Part shown: one piece after another, positions 9,927-55,651 of the stretch
Numbering within the stretch: position 1 is the first letter of the stretch
Layout of the letters: each line of letters begins with the position of its first letter
From: Dehalococcoidia bacterium
GTDB taxonomy: Bacteria; Chloroflexota; Dehalococcoidia; UBA2979
Length of the DNA: 64,000 nt
Direction of reading: 5' to 3'
NCBI GenBank assembly: GCA_965249675.1
Contig: OZ252250.1
Location: 644,731-708,730, forward strand
Notes under the pieces: model-generated
Told to the model about the DNA's origin: nothing
The model's input: the letters and a program-made list of their open reading frames with translations, nothing else
Databases searched by the model: none
Position numbers and translations under genes: made by a program

Positions 9927-11108
9927 CTACCGCTCCTGCCGCGCGGGCGCGATCCGGGTCTCACGCAGCCTCGGACCGACCTCACCGGCGATCCGGCGCC
10001 AGCGGTCGGTGGCGGCACGCTGAACCTGGTCGAAGGTCGGGACAGCCTCGACCATCGCCCCGCACAACGCCACGAGATGCTCCAGATCGCCGAGGTCAAT
10101 CGTCTCCGCGCGCACCCGCCCTCTGGGGCCGGCGTTGTGCCAGTTGCCGAGTGCGAGACAGGCGGCACCGGTCTCGTAGCCGAGGAGATCGAAGGCGGTC
10201 GCCTCGGTCGTGCCGGCGTCCATCAGCTTCCGCTGGTACCGGAAGTCGGGATCGGTCTCGCTCAGCGCGGCCGCGATCCCGGTCATCCAGCCGGTCATGG
10301 CGGGTGAGAAGATGTGACCGCGATCACCGACGCGGATGATCCCGCCGCCCCCGGACCGGGCGCGACCGCCAGCGCTCGATGAGGTCTCAATTGCCACGAC
10401 CAGGGCATCGTGCGGCAATGTGCCGGCATCGGCAGCGGCTGCCGCACCCTCCAGACCGACCTCTTCAGCACGGGTAAAGAGGCCGATCAGATCGCCATCG
10501 CCTGCCCGAGCGCAGAGGCGATCGAGCACTGCGAGCACCGTCACGCAGCCCGCCAGGTCATCACACTGCCGCGCATAGACCCGGCTCCCGCGGATTCGGC
10601 AGCGGTCGACATCCCAGAGTGCCAGGTCGCCCGGGGCGATCTCCTCCCCTTCAGTTTCGAGCACCGCGCGCGCCCCGAGGATACGAGCCGGCCCGGACCC
10701 TGCAGCCGTCGAGGAGATGACCCGGGTCACCCTCGCCCGTCCGCTCGCCTCTGGCGAGCCTGGTCGATAAATGCGGAGTCGTTCACCATCTCCGTAGGCG
10801 GCCGAGAGCCCGCCCCGGAATTCGAGTGTGAGCTCCGGGCCCCGCACCTCGGTCACGACGAAGCCGGGGTGGTCGGTGTGCGCCTGCAGCACCAGCGGTC
10901 GCCGCTGCTCGCCCGCCCGATAGCGAACCGTGACGTTTCCGAAGTCGTCCTCGGCCGTCTCGAGTCCGCGAGCGCCCGCGAACCTCCGGACAAACTCGAG
11001 CACCTGATGTTCGTGATGAGGAGCGGTCGGGATCGGCAGCACCTCGCGCAGGAGGTCAGGCAGGGGCACCGGATGGTGGGGCGGCGTCTGATCTGTCGGC
11101 TCGTTCAT
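9927..11108 (-). CDS. M42 family metallopeptidase (glutamyl aminopeptidase/FrvX-like)
   Basis: LQAHTDHPGFVV and the DD(L/I)AG / VGLEGAAAAA motifs typical of the M42 family. 393 aa. Confidence 0.85.
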   Translation of the reverse strand: MNEPTDQTPPHHPVPLPDLLREVLPIPTAPHHEHQVLEFVRRFAGARGLETAEDDFGNVTVRYRAGEQRRPLVLQAHTDHPGFVVTEVRGPELTLEFRGGLSAAYGDGERLRIYRPGSPEASGRARVTRVISSTAAGSGPARILGARAVLETEGEEIAPGDLALWDVDRCRIRGSRVYARQCDDLAGCVTVLAVLDRLCARAGDGDLIGLFTRAEEVGLEGAAAAADAGTLPHDALVVAIETSSSAGGRARSGGGGIIRVGDRGHIFSPAMTGWMTGIAAALSETDPDFRYQRKLMDAGTTEATAFDLLGYETGAACLALGNWHNAGPRGRVRAETIDLGDLEHLVALCGAMVEAVPTFDQVQRAATDRWRRIAGEVGPRLRETRIAPARQER

Positions 11109-11203
11109 CTTCCCCTCACGCGGCTCTGGTCAATGCTATCGGAGCGGACGGCGCCACCGAGTCGAATATCGACCGAAGGGCACCCTCCCTGTAGCGTCGG
11201 GGG

Positions 11204-12508
11204 ATGCAGACATCCCCTCAGACGGTCAGGCTGCCTGCCCCCCGGGTTCCAGAACCGATCCCCAGGCGACGGCACCGCAAGGACCGACACCTCCATAACC
11301 GCCCGCTCGTGCCTATCGAGCTTGAGCTCACGGGCTTCGCGGCCGGTGGGCGAGCGATCGGCCATGCCCTGGACGGCCGGGTGGTCTTCGTCGAGTACGG
11401 CATCCCGGGCGAGCGGGTCGTCGCCGAGATCACGTGGGATGGCCCGAGCTTCATCGAGGCGACAGCCGTCCTCGTGCTGAGATCCGCCGCGGCACGGGTC
11501 GACGCACCGTGCGGCTACTTCGGACGGTGCGGCGGCTGCCAGCTGCAGCACATCGACTACCCGGAGCAGCTGCGCCTGAAGACCGAGATCGTGCGCGATC
11601 AGCTGATGCGGCTCGGCGGCTTCGCCGAGGACGAGGTCCGATCGCTCGTGCTCGGAATGATCGGCATGGACGACCCGTGGCACTACCGCAACCACATGCG
11701 CTTCACGGTCCGCCGCGATGGACAGGTCGGCTTCATGCAGCGCGGTAGCCACCGCTTCCTGCGGATCGACAAATGCGAGATCGCCGGGGATCGGGCCAAT
11801 GAGCTGCTCGGTGCCGTGCAGGACCGTACGATGCAGACGGCCCAGATCTCGATCCGCGTCGGCGAGCACGCAGACGACTTCCTGATCCAGCCCCACCTCA
11901 AGTGGCGGCCGCGGGCCACCGGCGCTCGCCCCTCAAGCGGTCAGCGGTCCTATCACGAGGAGCTTGGGGGTCACCGCTACCGCATCTCTTCAGCAGCCTT
12001 CTTCCAGGTCAACACTCGCCAGGCAGAGCAGCTCGTGCGGCTCGTCGTCGAGCGGGTGCTCGAGGCTCGCCCGGACGTAGTGATCGATGCCTACTCCGGC
12101 GTCGGGACCTTCGCAGCGCAGCTCGCACCAGAAGTCACGCGTCTCCTCACGATCGAGCTCTCGGCGGCGGCCGATGGTGATGCTGCGGTCAACCTTGCCG
12201 CGTTCGACAACATCGAGCGCCTCGAGGGGACGGTCGAACGTCTGCTCCCCGATCTACGCTCCGGCGACGTCGTGATCATCGACCCGCCACGCTCAGGCCT
12301 CGAGCAGGTCACGGTCGAAGCGATACTGAGCTCCAGAGCCAGGCGCGTCGTCTACATCTCCTGTGACCCGGGGACGCTGGCTCGAGACCTGCGCCTCTTC
12401 CGAGCCGGAGGTCTTGCGATCGTCGACATCCAACCGCTCGACATGTTCCCGCACACCCAGCACATCGAGTGCATCACCACCCTCGATCGACCGACGGGCG
12501 CGGCTTAG
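11204..12508 (+). CDS. 23S rRNA (uracil-5)-methyltransferase RumA/RlmD-like (TRAM + 4Fe-4S + class I SAM MTase)
   Basis: TRAM domain (GRAIGHALDGRVVFVEYGIPGERVVAEI), Fe-S cysteines (CGYFGRCGGCQLQH), SAM-binding (DAYSGVGTF), and C-terminal catalytic Cys region (YISCDPGTLARD). The true start may be internal (GTG/TTG). Confidence 0.8.
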   Translation: MQTSPQTVRLPAPRVPEPIPRRRHRKDRHLHNRPLVPIELELTGFAAGGRAIGHALDGRVVFVEYGIPGERVVAEITWDGPSFIEATAVLVLRSAAARVDAPCGYFGRCGGCQLQHIDYPEQLRLKTEIVRDQLMRLGGFAEDEVRSLVLGMIGMDDPWHYRNHMRFTVRRDGQVGFMQRGSHRFLRIDKCEIAGDRANELLGAVQDRTMQTAQISIRVGEHADDFLIQPHLKWRPRATGARPSSGQRSYHEELGGHRYRISSAAFFQVNTRQAEQLVRLVVERVLEARPDVVIDAYSGVGTFAAQLAPEVTRLLTIELSAAADGDAAVNLAAFDNIERLEGTVERLLPDLRSGDVVIIDPPRSGLEQVTVEAILSSRARRVVYISCDPGTLARDLRLFRAGGLAIVDIQPLDMFPHTQHIECITTLDRPTGAA

Positions 12509-42843: not shown

Positions 42844-44823
42844 ATGTCCCGACCGATCGACCCCGGCATCGTCACCGAGCTTGAGGTGGTCGCCTCCCCC
42901 GCGCTCCGCCCCGACGGGCGCACGATCGCCTACGTGCGCCAGGGCGTTGAGCCCGGGACACTGCGGCGCTGGTCCTTCATCGAACGCGCCCCCTTCCCGG
43001 AGGGTGACGACGAGTCGGCGACCGTTCGCCGGCTCACGCAGGGCCCACTCGACTCGGCCCCGCTCTGGTCACCAGACGGCGGCAGCCTTGCCTTCCTGCG
43101 CTCGGCCAGGGAGCCGGGCGGCACGGTTGGGCCTCCGCAGCTCTGGCTGCTCCCCGCCGACGGCGGTGAGGCCTGCCAGCTGACCGATCTGGCCGGCGCG
43201 GTGCGATCGATCACCTGGCTGCCAGACGGCTCTTCCCTGGTGATCGCGGCCGAGGTCGATCCCGATCAGCCCGGCCCGGACGCCGACCCGGAGATCCCCA
43301 CCGTCAGACGCGTCAACCACATCTACTACCGCGCCGACGGCATCGGTTGGCGCGGCGACACGCACCGACAGCTCTTCCGCGTCGACGCCAGGGAGGGCGG
43401 GGTGCGACAGCTGACGAGCGACGACTACGACTGCTACTTCCCCGCGCCATCTCCAGACGGCAGGCTGGTCGCCTTCGCCTCGGGCGACCGCTCAGGTGAA
43501 CGGGAGCGCCGTACGCCGGGCAAGCTCGAGCTCTGTGTTGTCCCGACAGGCGGCGGAACGGTCGAGCGGTTGGTGACAGGCCTGAGCGGGCTCGGCCCGA
43601 TCACCTGGTCCCCCGACGGACGGCGGCTGGCATACGTCTCCGGTGGCGACGAGCCCTCCTACTCACAGAGCTACCTGTGGACACTCGACCACCAGCCGGA
43701 GGCGCGCCCTGTTTGCCTCAGCCCCGACCGTTTGCAGCCGACCGGCGGCGGACCACCCCTGACCGAGCCGCCCCCGCTCTCGTGGCGAGCGGGGGAGATC
43801 ACCTTCGCTGCGGAGCGACGCGGGTCGAGTGGCCTCTACCGGATCGCCGAGGCCGGGGGCGAGGTGACGGTGCTCCACGAGGCGGACGAGCTCTCAAGTG
43901 GGCTCTCTCTCTCGGCGGACGCTCAGCGCGGCGCCACCGTCGCCTCGACGGTCGACCGGCCCGGGGAGGTGATGACGCTCGACCTCGACCGCGGAACCGG
44001 CCAGCGGCTCACGCGGGTCAGCGACGGCTACCTCACCACCCACCCGCCGGCCGCCACCGAGCGCTTCACCTTGCGGCGGGCAGACCTCGAGATCGAGTGC
44101 TGGCTGACCTTCCCGCTCGACTTCGACCCTCAGCGCAGCTATCCCCTGGTGCTCGAGGTGCATGGCGGACCAAACGGCTTCTTCGGCAACGGCTGGATGC
44201 CGCTCCACCAGATGCTGGCCGGCGCCGGCTACCTGGTTCTGGCGACCAATCCTCGCGGTTCGTCGACCTACGGACAGGATTTCGTCTCGCGCGTCTTCGG
44301 GGACTGGGGAGGAGAGGACTATCTCGACCAGATGGCGGCCGTCGACCAGGTGCTCGAGCGCGGTTATGTGGACGCGGACCGGCTCGCCATCCACGGCTAC
44401 TCCTACGGCGGGTTCATGACCTCATGGACGATCGGTCACACCACTCGCTTCCGCTCGGCGATCGTGGCGGCGCCGGTGACGAATCTCGTCTCGATGTACG
44501 GACAGACCGACATCGCCGTGCAGTTCGGCGAGCAGCAGTGGGGAGGCACCCCCTGGGAGCGCGCCGACGCCTACGTTCGGCACTCGCCCATCACCTACGC
44601 GCCGCGTGTCGAGACGCCGGTGCTCCTGCTCCACGGCGAAGCAGACATCCGCTGTCCGATCTCCCAGTCCGAGGAGTACTACACCGTGCTCAAGCGGCTC
44701 GGAAAGCCGGTTGAGTTCGTGCGCTTCCCCGGAGGTTTCCACGGCTTCGTACGCAGCGGACACCCGGCGATGGTCCGCGCCTACCACGAGCACGTGCTGG
44801 AGTGGTTCGGGCGCACGCTCTAG
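42844..44823 (+). CDS. S9 family serine peptidase (acylaminoacyl-peptidase/prolyl oligopeptidase-like) with N-terminal beta-propeller
   Basis: Repeated WSPDG propeller motifs. C-terminal alpha/beta hydrolase with GYSYGG nucleophile elbow, plus Asp and His catalytic positions. GAGGAG RBS. Confidence 0.9.
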   Translation: MSRPIDPGIVTELEVVASPALRPDGRTIAYVRQGVEPGTLRRWSFIERAPFPEGDDESATVRRLTQGPLDSAPLWSPDGGSLAFLRSAREPGGTVGPPQLWLLPADGGEACQLTDLAGAVRSITWLPDGSSLVIAAEVDPDQPGPDADPEIPTVRRVNHIYYRADGIGWRGDTHRQLFRVDAREGGVRQLTSDDYDCYFPAPSPDGRLVAFASGDRSGERERRTPGKLELCVVPTGGGTVERLVTGLSGLGPITWSPDGRRLAYVSGGDEPSYSQSYLWTLDHQPEARPVCLSPDRLQPTGGGPPLTEPPPLSWRAGEITFAAERRGSSGLYRIAEAGGEVTVLHEADELSSGLSLSADAQRGATVASTVDRPGEVMTLDLDRGTGQRLTRVSDGYLTTHPPAATERFTLRRADLEIECWLTFPLDFDPQRSYPLVLEVHGGPNGFFGNGWMPLHQMLAGAGYLVLATNPRGSSTYGQDFVSRVFGDWGGEDYLDQMAAVDQVLERGYVDADRLAIHGYSYGGFMTSWTIGHTTRFRSAIVAAPVTNLVSMYGQTDIAVQFGEQQWGGTPWERADAYVRHSPITYAPRVETPVLLLHGEADIRCPISQSEEYYTVLKRLGKPVEFVRFPGGFHGFVRSGHPAMVRAYHEHVLEWFGRTL

Positions 44824-44913
44824 CGAAGAGACGCCGGGCGTGCCCCCGCGCCGCTCCCTCGACCCGGCGCGGCCTGGCGAGCCGTCCGGATCCCGGGGAA
44901 GCAGCGAGCGTTG

Positions 44914-47639: not shown

Positions 47640-48616
47640 CGGATCCGGGCGCTAGGCTCGGTGGCACGACCGAGCGGGCGGCGTGATCGCCTCCATGGGC
47701 GATCCGCACCTCGCTGCAGTAGCTGGCCCCGCAATGGATAGCCCCAGTGGATGCCGGGGCTTCGGTGACGCGGCCGCGATCGAGGCGGCCGCCGGGAAAC
47801 GGTCAGGTGCGGGCAGCAACGAGCGCTGCGTACTGATCGAGCCTCGCGCGCCGCATGCCCTCCGTCAGACCGCCGAGCCCCGCATCGTGAAGCTGCTCGA
47901 GCGCCGACGGAGCAGCGAGCACTTCGACGCGGGCGAGCGCGTCCATGCGGGGGTCCTGCCGCGCGCCCGAACTGGCCTCGTAGGCAAGTCGAGAGCGCTC
48001 GGCGGCAACGACCCCGGGGGGACTGGGCCAGATTCTGCCGGCACCAGCCCGCGTCGATCCCCGGTGGGCCGACGGATGCGTTCACCCAGTCCACGACGCC
48101 GCTCAGCTGCGAGCCCTGCCAGAGGACGTTCATCGGGTGGAAGTCACGATGGGATCATCCCCTCCCTATCGCCCTCGTGAAGATCGCCGCCACCGTCCGC
48201 GCTGCCGACCGTAGGCCGCCACTCCCGCGCCTGCTCGATCACGCCCGCCGATGCCGGCCGCTTCTGAGACCAGGTGGGCGGGGCGAGCGCGGAGAGATCG
48301 ACCCGGGGTCGGTAGCGCGGGAGCGTGTCGCCTCGGGAGCCGTCACCTCGTGGATCGGCGGCAGCGCCTCGGCCATCTGGCCGAGCCAGTGTTCCAGGTT
48401 GGGCGGCGCCATCACCAGCCGTCCCGGGAGGCGGGTCATCAGAACCGCGGGGACGCCCGCGCCAGTGGACGGCGGACTAGGTGCCGCCGCGCAGGTGCCG
48501 GACCGAGGCGACTCGCGCTCGCGCCGATACCTGCCGTTCGGCCCATCTGAGCGCCCGGGACGGCGGCGGAACGCGCAGGGCCTCAAGAGCGGGCCGATCG
48601 CCGACGCCGGGGCCAC
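47640..48616 (-). pseudogene. Aminoglycoside-phosphotransferase/protein-kinase-like (PF01636-like) gene broken by in-frame stops and frameshifts
   Basis: GTG 48616 with GGGAAG RBS, then a Brenner motif split by a stop (...*IHRDFHPMNVLWQGSQLSGVVDWVNASVGPPGIDAGW). Sub-ORFs 48239-48616 and 47105-48133 share a frame separated by TGA codons, and both flanks turn to junk. Confidence 0.5.
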
Positions 48617-48645
48617 CTTCCCGGGGGCTCACTCGCCAGAGCTAG

Positions 48646-49824
48646 GGACGCTCTGAACTGGCCGCGAAATGCGGCCGATCAGGCTCTTCTGGGGCGTTCA
48701 ATCGCTTGATGGTCAGGAATGCGGCCTGATCGGGGCTCGCGAGCGGCTCTGCGAGTGCCGTTTGGCGCTCGCTGCGGGATTCTGGGCGCACTGCGCCGTT
48801 GTTACGCAGCAAGTTGGCGCTCCGCTCGAACCATGTTGGCCAGCCCCAACAGCAACGCGAGCCGCTGCGTGTTCTTGAACAATCCGCGGTAGCGGACCTT
48901 GGCGTAGCCGAAGCGCACCTTCACGATCTGGAACGGATGCTCGACCTTCGCACGCACGGAGGCCTTGCGCTTCTCTTCGAGCCACTCCTCACCCTCCCGG
49001 TCGAGCAGTCGCCGCTTGCCCGGTCGCATGGCAACCTGCCACTGCACCGCACGCTCGCGCTGCTCCAGACGTTTTCCGATGCCCTGGTAGCCCGCATCGC
49101 CACAGACCAGCCTTTCGTTGCCGTGCAGCAGGTCGGGCGCCGCGGTGATGTCGCTCACGTTCGCCGCCGTCGTGTGGAGGCTGTGCACGATGCCGCTCTC
49201 AGAGTCCACCCCGATGTGCAACTTCATCCCGAAGTACCACTGGTTTCCCTTGCGCGTCTGGTGCATCTCGGGATCCCGTGCTCTGGTCGACGAGGGGGCG
49301 CTGATGATACTGGCATCAACCACAGTCCCCTGTCTCAACTGCAGTCCTTCCGCCTCCAGATGGCGGTTGATCTCCTCGAGCAACCCCCTCCCCAGCGCGG
49401 CCGCCTCCAGCCGGTGGCGGAAGTTGAGAATCGTCGTCTCATCGGGGATCGCGTCCGATAGCCTGAGCCCCACGAAGCGCTGCACGGTGAGATTCTCGTA
49501 CAGCGCGTCCTCCATCGCCGGGTCGCTGAGGTTGTCGACCAGTTGCACGATGTGCACCCGCAGCATCAGTGACAGTGGGTAGGGCTGGCGCCCCCGTCCC
49601 GGCATCGGGTAGTGGGGCGCAATGCGCTGCTCGAGTTGCCGCCACGGAACCAGCCGATCGAGTCGTTCCAGAAACCGCTCCCGGCGAGTCGTTCGCTTCT
49701 TCGCGTCGTAGTACAGCTCCGCGAACGTTGCCTCGCCCATCGCGCTCACCTCGTCATCTGGTCGAATGCCATACCATCCCGTGTAGGCATCTTAACAGAT
49801 CATGCGGGTCTGTTCAGAGCGTCC
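48646..49824 (-). mobile_element. IS5-family insertion sequence (IS5 group), ~1179 bp, with 13-bp terminal inverted repeats GGACGCTCTGAAC and a 4-bp CTAG target-site duplication
   Basis: IRL at 48646-48658 and IRR at 49812-49824 are perfect inverted copies, flanked by CTAG at 48642-45 and 49825-28. Encodes a full-length IS5-like DDE transposase. Confidence 0.85.
48802..49749 (-). CDS. IS5-family DDE transposase (315 aa)
   Basis: Collinear with E. coli IS5 transposase (RQPYPLSLMLRVHIVQ..., NLSDPAMEDALYE, DPEMHQTRKGNQWYFGMKLHIGVD, DAGYQG, RAKVEHPF). Confidence 0.9.
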   Translation of the reverse strand: MSAMGEATFAELYYDAKKRTTRRERFLERLDRLVPWRQLEQRIAPHYPMPGRGRQPYPLSLMLRVHIVQLVDNLSDPAMEDALYENLTVQRFVGLRLSDAIPDETTILNFRHRLEAAALGRGLLEEINRHLEAEGLQLRQGTVVDASIISAPSSTRARDPEMHQTRKGNQWYFGMKLHIGVDSESGIVHSLHTTAANVSDITAAPDLLHGNERLVCGDAGYQGIGKRLEQRERAVQWQVAMRPGKRRLLDREGEEWLEEKRKASVRAKVEHPFQIVKVRFGYAKVRYRGLFKNTQRLALLLGLANMVRAERQLAA

Positions 49825-51204
49825 CTAGCGGGCAAGCGCCCCCATCGGGTCCCACGGCGGCAGCACGATCGGCTCGAGTCCGAGCGCATCCTGGAGGTCC
49901 TCCGGGAGATCCTGACGCCGCACCGCCACCTCGAACATGTACTGATCGAACCAGGAGTCGTTCATCACGTAGAAGCCCTTGCGGCCGTTCTTTTCGCCCC
50001 AGCTGTTCTCCACACGCCAGCGCCGCGCGGAACCGTCCACCACATCAACGCCGGTGAAGAGCATGGCGTGAGTCATGAAGGTCTGGTGGTAGCGCAGGCG
50101 TTCGGCCTTGTCGAGATCGAACTCGGTCCCATACAGCGCGCCGTACTCAAACATCTGAGCGTCCCAGATCCCCTCATCACGCTGCATCATCTTGCCGACG
50201 TCGCAGCCCATCCAGACCGGCTCGCCGCGCTCGACGATGGAGCGCCTGGTGAGCTCCTTCATCATGTCGACCTCGACGTTGAGATAGTGGACCGGCGCGC
50301 CGCCGACCACGTTGCTCAGGTACTCCACCGTGTAGGTACGCCCGTAGGGGCTGCCCGGCCTGGGGTCATTGACGAGCGTCACGTAGTCGTCGACCGGCCG
50401 GTCGACGTAGCGCCGGGCGAACTCGAGCGGCGTCAGTTCGCCGTCACGATGGAAGTGGTTGTCAGCGTCCTGCCACTGCCAGTTGAATCGCTCAGGTGGC
50501 GTTCCGAGGTGGATGGCGAGGATGCGGTAGATGGTCCCCACCACCCGGTCCTTGGTCTCCCTGAGCGAGGCCACAGACCCCCCGGCCTCGTACCCGAGGC
50601 GGAGGTCCCGCGCCCCCTCCCTTAGCTTCTCAACGAGGTCCCGGTTCATCGGCCTCGTGCTCTCGGAGCTCTTCGTCTCCGGCATCACCGCCTTCGGCAC
50701 GAGACCATACTTCTGAACCAGGCTCGCGAACATGTTCCACTGGCCGCCGTCGTCCAGCGGGTGGCTGAGGAGCCAGGCGACGGTGCGGTCATCGATCGGA
50801 CGACCGGCGGTCTCGATGATCGCCTCGAGGAAGTAGTTGGCACGCTCGAACTTGTCCCAGAAGAAGAGGTAGTTCTGGCTGAACTCGAACCCCTTGAGGC
50901 CCATCTGCTCCATCGCGCCGACACGGAAGAGATTCATCCCGGCGAAGAGCCAGCAGCGCCCGGACTGCTTCTGATCGGTCACGGCCCAACGGTCGAGCAG
51001 GTGAGAGAAGGTGTGATCGGTCTCGGTCACGACCTGTCGGTTGACCGCGAGCTGATCGATCTGTGTGCGCGTCACGGCGTTCTGGGCGAGGCGGAGCCCG
51101 GGATCGGCCTCGAACGCCGAACGGAGGATCTGCACGCGCTCCCGGTCGAGGGCGCCGCCGTGCTGGTCCGCGCTCTCCGTCTTGGCCACAGTCTCAGTCG
51201 TCAC
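49825..51204 (-). CDS. pepC: Aminopeptidase C / bleomycin-hydrolase-like C1B cysteine peptidase
   Basis: QKQSGRCWLFAG catalytic Cys motif, plus C-terminal His and Asn region. GTG 51204 after GAGGAGG. Its TAG stop is the right copy of the IS5 CTAG duplication. Confidence 0.85.
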   Translation of the reverse strand: MTTETVAKTESADQHGGALDRERVQILRSAFEADPGLRLAQNAVTRTQIDQLAVNRQVVTETDHTFSHLLDRWAVTDQKQSGRCWLFAGMNLFRVGAMEQMGLKGFEFSQNYLFFWDKFERANYFLEAIIETAGRPIDDRTVAWLLSHPLDDGGQWNMFASLVQKYGLVPKAVMPETKSSESTRPMNRDLVEKLREGARDLRLGYEAGGSVASLRETKDRVVGTIYRILAIHLGTPPERFNWQWQDADNHFHRDGELTPLEFARRYVDRPVDDYVTLVNDPRPGSPYGRTYTVEYLSNVVGGAPVHYLNVEVDMMKELTRRSIVERGEPVWMGCDVGKMMQRDEGIWDAQMFEYGALYGTEFDLDKAERLRYHQTFMTHAMLFTGVDVVDGSARRWRVENSWGEKNGRKGFYVMNDSWFDQYMFEVAVRRQDLPEDLQDALGLEPIVLPPWDPMGALAR

Positions 51205-55061: not shown

Positions 55062-55651
55062 GCCCGCGGGCGATCTACACGCGTACCGGTGATCGGGGCG
55101 AGACCGGCCTCTTCGGCGGGCCGCGCCTGCCCAAGGACGACATCCGGATTGAGGCCTACGGCACCGTCGATGAGCTCAACTCCCTGCTCGGCGTGGCCGC
55201 CGCGGGCATCGCCGACCGTGATCTTGGGGACTACCTGCGGGTGATCCAGTCGAAGCTCTTCGACCTCGGTGGTGAACTCGCCACGCCGGGCATCGAGCAG
55301 CGAATCGAGCGCGGGCAACCGGTCGGGCCGCGCGTCGAGGCCGAGGACGCAGCGGAACTCGAGCGCTGGATCGACCGGCTCGATGGCGAACTTGAGCCGC
55401 TGACGCGCTTCATCCTGCCCGGTGGCGACCCGGTTGCGGCGCAGCTGCACCACGCCCGCACGGTCTGCCGGCGTGCCGAGCGGCGGGTCGTCTCGCTGGC
55501 CGCTGCCGAGGAGGTTGCCGCGCCGCTCATTCGCTACCTGAACCGGCTCTCCGACCTGCTCTTCACGCTCGCCCGCTGCATCAACGCCCGGGCCGGCCAG
55601 GTCGAGCCCGAATGGCAGGGCCTCGCGCGGGCGGACGAGCCGCCCCGCTAG
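55058..55651 (+). CDS. ATP:cob(I)alamin adenosyltransferase, PduO-type
   Basis: IYTRTGDRGETGLFGG N-terminal motif and helical-bundle core. TTG start overlaps the preceding gene's stop. Confidence 0.85.
   Translation: MSPRAIYTRTGDRGETGLFGGPRLPKDDIRIEAYGTVDELNSLLGVAAAGIADRDLGDYLRVIQSKLFDLGGELATPGIEQRIERGQPVGPRVEAEDAAELERWIDRLDGELEPLTRFILPGGDPVAAQLHHARTVCRRAERRVVSLAAAEEVAAPLIRYLNRLSDLLFTLARCINARAGQVEPEWQGLARADEPPR

Follow-up and report, generated by a model that had tools for sequence, protein, structure and literature searches.

An IS5-group insertion sequence at the stop codon of pepC in an uncultured GC-rich bacterium, with a short in-frame deletion in its transposase gene

The prototype of the IS5 group, IS5 (IS5A) from Escherichia coli K-12, is 1195 bp long, encodes a single DDE transposase, InsH, of about 320 amino acids, and duplicates a 4-bp YTAR target. 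The element described here, identified in a window of 64 kb (the whole stretch of DNA analysed, 64,000 nucleotides) from an uncultured GC-rich bacterium, likewise has a single transposase gene of this type and a 4-bp YTAR duplication, and belongs to the same size class, being 1179 bp long, or about 1191 bp without a deletion considered below. The ends of the two elements, GGAAGGTGCGAAC in E. coli and GGACGCTCTGAAC here, are alike in the GGA start and the GAA core and differ after GGA. E. coli IS5 has a different host and only 53% protein identity, and a segment reading SSTKNKEQQRDPE in InsH corresponds to SSTR----ARDPE here, with four residues missing from the window copy.

The best annotated plasmid matches in PLSDB, namely ISAch1, ISPre1, IS1384, and ISPa16, are IS5-group elements of Pseudomonas and related plasmids that align over the full length with about 54% amino acid identity, far under the isoform level. 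By the ISfinder convention, a new name is given to an element below about 95% nucleotide or 98% amino acid identity to any registered one. IS5-group elements from marine metagenome-assembled genomes (L002–L081), with 54–70% amino acid identity among the matches listed, come from Dehalococcoidia, Caldilineaceae, Longimicrobiales, and Gammaproteobacteria and are different elements from that in the window; as here, they have GGA-NNNN-CTGAAC ends, lengths of 1150–1235 bp, and YTAR duplications. The same element, at 94–98% nucleotide identity, is found among the matches listed in sister assemblies only (L082–L085). In other subgroups of the IS5 family, IS427, IS1031, and IS903, the transposase is of the DDE_Tnp_1 type, the target is centred on TA in some cases, the duplications are of 2–4, 3, or 9 bp, and the transposase is in some cases expressed via frameshifting; the duplication of the window element is of 4 bp.

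The element is an ordinary, lineage-specific IS5-type insertion sequence that harms nothing, and it is a new example of a well-known IS5-group type. It occupies positions 48646–49824 and has its transposase gene on the minus strand; these limits are set by the empty sites in sister assemblies and by alignment to the four other copies. The terminal inverted repeats, at 48646–48663 (APH-proximal, the right end in the transposase orientation) and 49807–49824 (pepC-proximal, the left end), match perfectly over 13 nucleotides and, the match extending imperfectly beyond these, at 16 out of 18 positions overall; GGACGCTCTGAAC lies at 48646–48658 on the plus strand and its reverse complement at 49812–49824, and this exact 13-mer occurs within the window only in these two end copies. 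The first-pass annotation of this DNA had proposed a complete IS5-family element with perfect 13-bp inverted repeats; re-inspection of the sequence agrees on the repeats, and the element is complete insofar as it has its two ends and an open reading frame for the transposase. Related elements have the end motif GGA-NNNN-CTGAAC too, and the short inverted repeats start with GG(A), as is typical of the IS5 group and as observed in the relatives whose ends were found as well as in E. coli IS5, with the GAA core also present in the latter. The size and the gene content, 1179 bp with one ORF, fall within the range of the group (about 1.1–1.3 kb, one transposase gene, no passenger genes). Two other interpretations were rejected: the window contains a single copy of the element, leaving no place for a composite transposon or a nearby second copy, and the GC content of the element, 64%, is at the level of the adjacent pepC (vs. 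68% in the window), which does not fit a compositional island.

The transposase is encoded at 48802–49740 (minus strand) and comprises 312 amino acids from ATG 49740, with GAGG nine nucleotides upstream; the alternative start GTG 49749 (ORF 48802–49749, minus strand) would yield 315 amino acids, ATG 49740 being better placed. The NCBIfam model NF033581 (IS5 family) matches it with 317 bits at a cutoff of 140 (E = 1e-94, profile positions 1–284 of 285), whereas the models of other IS5 subtypes score far under their cutoffs (72 vs. 275, 45 vs. 110, and 42 vs. 140). The Pfam domains are DDE_Tnp_1 (PF01609, 1.7e-29) and DUF772 (PF05598, 4e-21), and the alignment with E. coli InsH is full-length (E = 4e-117, residues 5–310 vs. 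6–319). The motifs DASII, GDAGY, and VEHPFxxxK are kept in the alignments with relatives and InsH; their D, D, and E, together with the downstream basic residue, we take to be the catalytic residues.

Outside one gap of four amino acids, this protein has 100% identity to the transposase P0241, which occurs at several sites in sister assemblies. The gap is caused by a 12-bp in-frame deletion with the junction at 49283–49290 (minus strand), established by DNA alignment with the four other copies, protein alignment, and the fixed spacing of conserved residues: CCAGGAATCGGG has been lost between CCAG repeats, so that residues RNRA are missing, and the junction in the window copy reads CTCGTCGACCAGAGCACGG. 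None of the four other copies (L082–L085) has this deletion in the DNA alignment. It falls into the conserved S-T-[KR]-N segment directly after the first catalytic Asp, and modelling indicates a position in the predicted loop that follows the strand bearing this Asp; the model in question, made with AlphaFold for the transposase in its intact form, has a mean pLDDT of 60 and values below 50 in the catalytic part, which is too poor to judge the deletion, and a sequence search for a PDB relative found none. The segment from Asp to RDPE comprises 17 residues here, vs. 21 in all 74 parsed relatives and E. coli IS5, and among the lost residues is the Asn of S-T-[KR]-N, present without exception in the same 74 proteins and E. 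coli IS5. Hence the conserved segments expected at full length in an autonomous copy are not all full-length in the window transposase.

The element had initially been described as carrying an intact transposase and as possibly still active. The reading frame is indeed open, but a fixed-length conserved segment short by four residues makes this description doubtful: judging by sequence conservation, the window copy is most likely impaired, with autonomous activity in doubt, and it may not move by itself. That the copy is, on the contrary, a fully functional, autonomous IS which tolerates the loss seems to us unlikely, if still worth considering, given the open frame, the identity to the multi-site P0241 save for the gap, the perfect inverted repeats on both sides with a clean duplication, and the presence of all D, D, and E motif residues; it has to be reconciled with the removal of an invariant Asn, with the shortening of a segment that has the same length in every relative, and with the absence of the deletion from all other copies of the element.

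Copies of the tetramer CTAG flank the element at 48642–48645 (left) and 49825–49828 (right), as read from the sequence, the sisters having a single tetramer at this place. All five sister assemblies in which the region is element-free (L001, L086, L087, L088, L091), with flanks 98–99% identical to those in the window, carry an empty site, CTAG in four of them and TTAG in L091. If 48646–49828 (1183 bp, the element together with a single CTAG) is taken out of the window, the result is exactly the L001 sequence across the junction; the empty site is reconstituted base for base, and there are no extra bases between repeat and duplication that would indicate a different boundary. The CTAG target duplication and the recent insertion, both suggested earlier along with a search for the empty site in relatives, are thus upheld by the single tetramer in the five sisters and by the lack of the element in all of them. 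Duplication of YTAR is published behaviour of IS5 (PMC5009759), and the 4-bp YTAR duplication observed here is consistent with membership in the IS5 group.

As CTAG is palindromic, comparison with the empty site at this locus alone agrees with a duplication length of 4, 2, or 0 bp. The true duplication could then be TA, of 2 bp as in some IS5-family subgroups, and the inverted repeats would be 14 bp long (GGGACGC...GCGTCCC); the copies in L084 and L085, whose flanks are unequal, one being TTAG and one CTAG, could be taken to favour this. Yet the copies in L082 and L083 are flanked by direct TTAG/TTAG repeats, so that the own support of the element for the 4-bp rule amounts to three perfect cases out of five copies, the remainder coming from statistics of the family. 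YTAR is found on both sides in 61 out of 68 family elements, and the two tetramers are identical in 48, compared to a mean of 20.7 and a maximum of 35 in 20,000 permutations, none of which reached the observed number. Position 1 of the tetramer agrees in 56 and position 4 in 52 out of these 61 elements, and non-palindromic flanks form 20 direct repeats vs. one inverted. By these data, the YTAR flank of 4 bp is duplicated in direct orientation and is not a part of a longer inverted repeat, and the 2-bp variant is very improbable.

The right CTAG contains the stop codon of pepC (TAG, 49827–49825, minus strand). This gene, at 49825–51204 on the minus strand, encodes an aminopeptidase C/bleomycin-hydrolase-like C1 peptidase of 459 amino acids, starts at GTG 51204 with GGAGG upstream, and is intact: its product matches Pfam Peptidase_C1_2 over the full length (E = 5e-169) and is 99% identical to the 459-residue P0121. 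The first reading, an insertion on the pepC stop that leaves the gene intact, therefore stands, with TAG supplied by the right CTAG. Exact-sequence look-ups of the transposase and PepC, with two candidate starts for each, gave no match, and no match was located for P0001 and P0259 either.

On the other side of the element lies an APH-like phosphotransferase pseudogene (47803–48632, minus strand), delineated by three-frame translations and DNA alignment. Its ancestral start is GTG 48632, nine nucleotides past the pepC stop, with the element 13 nucleotides upstream; tblastn with the intact homologue P0260 places the N-terminal homology in the frame of this codon. The start assigned previously, GTG 48616, does lie 26 nucleotides from the left CTAG, but it is not the ancestral one, and the ORF beginning there is a frame chimera produced by a deletion of 175 bp. 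The reconstructed protein matches Pfam APH with E = 4.5e-24, and an intact orthologue adjoins pepC in a more distant relative (L090). The proposal that the element sits at the position of the APH promoter fails, since the nine-nucleotide gap between pepC and the APH gene is too short for any promoter. The idea of promoter displacement is also moot for another reason, the gene being dead beforehand.

Several lesions of the pseudogene are lineage-specific, namely, the nonsense codon TAG 48479–48477, the 175-bp deletion near 48467/48468, and an extra C in the run 48016–48021. Others are shared with IS-less sisters. The window has one frameshift, near residue 150 of the homologue, in common with the IS-less L086 and L091, and a +1 insertion at ATCCCAT (within 48143–48159), across which a solved APH-like protein aligns, is present in the window and L086, the two being identical through it; in L091, about 155 N-terminal amino acids are open from the ancestral start. 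The gene is broken in all five element-free sisters, each with further private lesions, such as a 417-bp deletion of its own in L001. Because element-free sisters carry at least one of its frameshifts, the APH gene was dead before the insertion, and its early characterization as already decayed was correct. An insertion that killed the gene by depriving it of its promoter or of read-through from pepC, with decay following afterwards, would explain why the element parts the remnant from pepC immediately upstream of GTG 48632, but the shared frameshifts and the broken gene in every IS-less sister leave it hardly any probability. Just as little credit is due to misassembly, by collapse or misjoining of a repeat at this locus: IS elements are commonly misassembled and the evidence comes from one window, but a misjoin would not yield a perfect 4-bp duplication of a tetramer present just once in each of five independent sister assemblies, nor flanks collinear with all five.

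We thus favour the following account, at a probability of about 0.88 for the whole of it: an IS5-group element inserted at the pepC stop next to an already decayed APH gene, and this copy, carrying a deletion acquired later or already present, is most likely impaired. An element with a DDE transposase moved into the CTAG tetramer in which pepC has its stop codon TAG; by a chemistry assumed from the family, the target would have been cut with a 4-bp stagger and the gaps repaired, so that CTAG was duplicated and the last codon and the stop of pepC were preserved. The insertion is lineage-specific, recent in terms of sequence divergence (a scale of about 1%), and essentially cost-free, the downstream gene being already a pseudogene. 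The 12-bp deletion, likely due to slippage, may have been acquired after the insertion or carried in with the element, and any further move would presumably depend on transposase from other copies.

A look for outward-directed -35 hexamers at the IS ends had been suggested as a further check. A sigma-70 promoter and terminator scan of 48300–50100 found none, so that neither end shows signs of a promoter of outward or hybrid type, and the inverted-repeat TTCAGA, read by eye, has no usable -10 at the correct spacing. RNA folding of the pepC-proximal end and the transposase start showed nothing unusual (z = -1.7), and Rfam had no match in the whole window. Megablast of the element against plasmids yielded no nucleotide match, and a 25-mer of the IS end, searched for exact matches in JGI metagenome contigs, had zero.

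Outside annotation, the locus is of little importance. Here an IS5-group insertion is cleanly and completely documented for an uncultured GC-rich bacterium, both the occupied and the empty site being known, and the insertion is usable as a strain marker among sisters 98–99% identical in the region. It also illustrates that an open transposase ORF and perfect ends are insufficient to call a copy intact, a 12-bp in-frame deletion being visible only against other copies, and it corrects the annotation of the APH pseudogene, both in its start codon and reading frames and in the succession of events.

The position of the insertion can be related to the availability of targets. YTAR tetramers are about seven-fold depleted in the window, which comes from a GC-rich genome (55 sites in 62.8 kb vs. 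395 expected from the base composition), and 21 out of these 55 sites, roughly 40%, are stops of GC3-supported ORFs. TAG is the commonest stop codon in the window. As some two fifths of the scarce targets coincide with stop codons, an insertion at a stop calls for no particular explanation. Active targeting of stop codons was considered and rejected, seven out of 47 insertions of relatives being at stops vs. 106 out of 833 control YTAR sites. It is conceivable, though we hold this only tentatively, that YTAR depletion would passively channel IS5-group elements to the ends of genes, the stop being restored there by the 4-bp duplication; the arithmetic covers one window, and the relatives show no stop preference past target availability. 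If such channelling operated, it would render IS5-group elements nearly harmless and, speculatively, could help to explain how they persist and spread in host-associated bacteria that are unrelated to each other.

The insertion is genuine, lineage-specific and recent. The closest homologues of pepC (99% identity) led to five sister loci in ENA metagenome assemblies (L001, L086, L087, L088, and L091), in which the gene order is the same, the flanks are 98–99% identical to the window, and the element is absent from all five. The empty site with a single CTAG, proposed as a check on the insertion, is thus borne out, and exactly so in L001, whose junction equals the window minus 48646–49828, base for base. 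The target tetramer itself is polymorphic: CTAG in the other sisters, it is TTAG in L091 (4377–4380) because of a synonymous change of CGC to CGT in the last pepC codon, and remains a YTAR site.

The perfect 13-bp terminal inverted repeats claimed in the first-pass annotation are both present, since the 13-mer GGACGCTCTGAAC is read from the sequence at 48646–48658 and its reverse complement at 49812–49824; neither has a further exact occurrence in the 64-kb window, and the repeat extends imperfectly, with 16 out of 18 positions matching. CTAG abuts the element on the left (48642–48645) and on the right (49825–49828). The sole long ORF noted between the ends encodes the transposase (48802–49749, minus strand), its probable start being ATG 49740, with GAGG 9 nt upstream, which yields 312 aa. 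A 220-aa ORF rich in Arg, Leu, and Pro runs antisense to it (48799–49461, plus strand); most likely this frame stays open because the GC content is high, and is not a gene. No second copy of the element was found in the window.

CTAG is palindromic, hence the pepC locus alone would also be compatible with a duplication of 2 bp (TA) or with none. Four further copies of the same element in sister assemblies (L082–L085, 94–98% nucleotide identity) and more distant relatives bear on this choice. L082 and L083 are flanked by direct repeats, TTAG/TTAG. We pooled 68 elements with both ends locatable, namely, 63 of the 80 related genome-contig loci listed (54–70% amino acid identity) together with L082–L085 and the window copy. 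Among these matches, YTAR is present on both sides of 61 elements, and the flanking tetramers are identical in 48 (CTAG in 25, TTAG in 11, CTAA in nine, TTAA in three), whereas shuffling the right flanks among elements in 20,000 trials gave on average 20.7 identical pairs and at most 35. Non-palindromic flank pairs comprise 20 direct repeats vs. one inverted. The same pattern of YTAR duplication has been published for IS5 (PMC5009759). Taking all this into account, the element is 1179 bp long and flanked by a 4-bp CTAG duplication, as initially proposed. The two flanks differ in the copies at L084:1917–3111 and L085:1917–3111, with TTAG next to the end upstream of the transposase and CTAG at the opposite end; recombination between copies, hence a rearrangement, or a point change after insertion could account for this.

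The assignment to the IS5 family holds as well: the transposase ORF scores 317 bits against the curated model NF033581 (cutoff 140) with the whole profile covered, and contains the Pfam domains DDE_Tnp_1 and DUF772. None of the models of other IS5 subtypes, IS1182, IS982, and IS4 comes anywhere near its own cutoff. The transposase is 53% identical to E. coli IS5 InsH over the full length, and the ends of the two elements are similar (GGACGCTCTGAAC here, GGAAGGTGCGAAC in IS5). The closest named plasmid elements, ISAch1, ISPre1, IS1384, and ISPa16, are about 54% identical; no nucleotide match to the element was found in the plasmid collection. Thus, it is an ordinary IS5-group insertion sequence, a fresh representative of a well-known type. 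Among the matches listed, related elements are present in MAGs of Dehalococcoidia, Caldilineaceae, Longimicrobiales, and Gammaproteobacteria. Individual MAGs from unrelated phyla carry many copies of transposase relatives (L002–L081, 54–70% identity); for instance, among the matches listed, one Dehalococcoidia MAG (CBDBJK) has at least 12 loci and one Longimicrobiales MAG (CBDBJW) at least eight. This pattern suggests that IS elements have expanded and been exchanged in these communities.

The open frame of the transposase is confirmed, but not the intactness that had led to the element being considered possibly active. The protein is identical to P0241, a relative encoded at several sites of sister assemblies, save for one 4-residue gap: it reads SSTRARDPE where relatives have SSTRNRARARDPE, due to the loss of 12 bp (CCAGGAATCGGG) between two CCAG repeats (junction 49286/49287). 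The flanking repeats point to replication slippage as the probable source of the deletion, which is absent from all four other copies (L082–L085). In all 74 parsable relatives and in E. coli InsH, the segment spanning the first catalytic Asp to RDPE has a fixed length of 21 residues, and S-T-[KR]-N is kept; in the window this segment has 17 residues, and the conserved Asn is among the four lost. Judging from this conservation, the in-frame deletion is probably damaging, and the window copy is probably impaired, movable only with transposase supplied by other copies. The structure model of the transposase is poor in the catalytic domain, and a sequence search found no solved relative.

The pepC gene remains intact, as had been noted: its stop TAG (49827–49825, minus strand) lies within the right CTAG, and the 459-aa product, of the same length as its homologues, has a full-length Peptidase_C1_2 match; the probable start is GTG 51204, preceded by GGAGG. 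In the window with 48646–49828 removed, YTAR sites are about seven-fold rarer than expected from base composition (55 vs. ~395), and 21 coincide with stop codons of ORFs showing coding-type GC3, so that hitting a stop is roughly a two-in-five event. Special targeting of stop codons is not needed: among the matches listed, stops of long ORFs were hit by seven out of 47 insertions of related elements, compared with 106 out of 833 other YTAR sites at the same loci, i.e., without excess. The 46 GC3-supported ORFs of the same sequence end in TAG (28), TGA (15), or TAA (three); it is unusual for TAG to be the commonest stop in a genome with 68% GC.

The APH-like gene on the other side has become a pseudogene throughout, in the window as well as in the five sisters. 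L090, a more distant relative, has an intact 318-aa orthologue at this position beside pepC, which confirms the gene order as ancestral. The first-pass annotation placed the start at GTG 48616, in the promoter region of which the element would lie; neither claim is retained. An intact homologue, P0260, mapped onto the DNA, has its N-terminal homology (residues 7–46, E = 9e-9) in the frame of GTG 48632, and in L091 the frame from exactly the equivalent codon is open for ~155 residues. GTG 48616 is in a different frame, and its ORF runs into genuine APH sequence solely owing to a 175-bp deletion that joined the two frames, consistent with Pfam matching only its residues 50–99. GTG 48632 lies 9 nt past the pepC stop in the same frame as pepC, and this gap leaves no promoter to be displaced. 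Neither promoter-like nor terminator-like sites were detected by a consensus scan of 48300–50100, the element ends included; no effect of the element on neighboring genes is detectable.

The description of the gene as already decayed is correct. A frameshift near residue 150 is common to the window, L086, and L091, and a +1 shift at ATCCCAT to the window and L086, where the DNA is identical; a solved APH-like protein aligns straight through the latter after correction. As these sisters lack the element, the gene was dead before its arrival. Three lesions are private to the window: a TCG codon has become TAG (nonsense, 48479–48477), the 175 bp noted above are missing near 48467/48468, and the run at 48016–48021 has gained a C. 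Comparison of the pseudogene regions (window 47803–48632; L001:7381–7957; L086:6381–7564; L091:4381–5560) indicates independent decay in each lineage, with a private 417-bp deletion and small indels in L001 and extra frameshifts in L086.

The sisters also differ elsewhere. L001 has 794 bp (about 10695–11489, locus coordinates) where the window has 78 (44822–44900); the extra ~715 bp, missing from the window and L086, include a 201-aa ORF without a Pfam match and were either inserted in L001 or deleted from the other two. Just past the equivalent of window position 55651, an MFS transporter gene follows in the window and the remaining sisters, but at L086:1–421 there is instead a 532-aa transposase, IS1182-like as judged from its domains (DUF772, DDE_Tnp_1, DDE_Tnp_1_6); this is a further IS event confined to one lineage, at a distance of a few kb.
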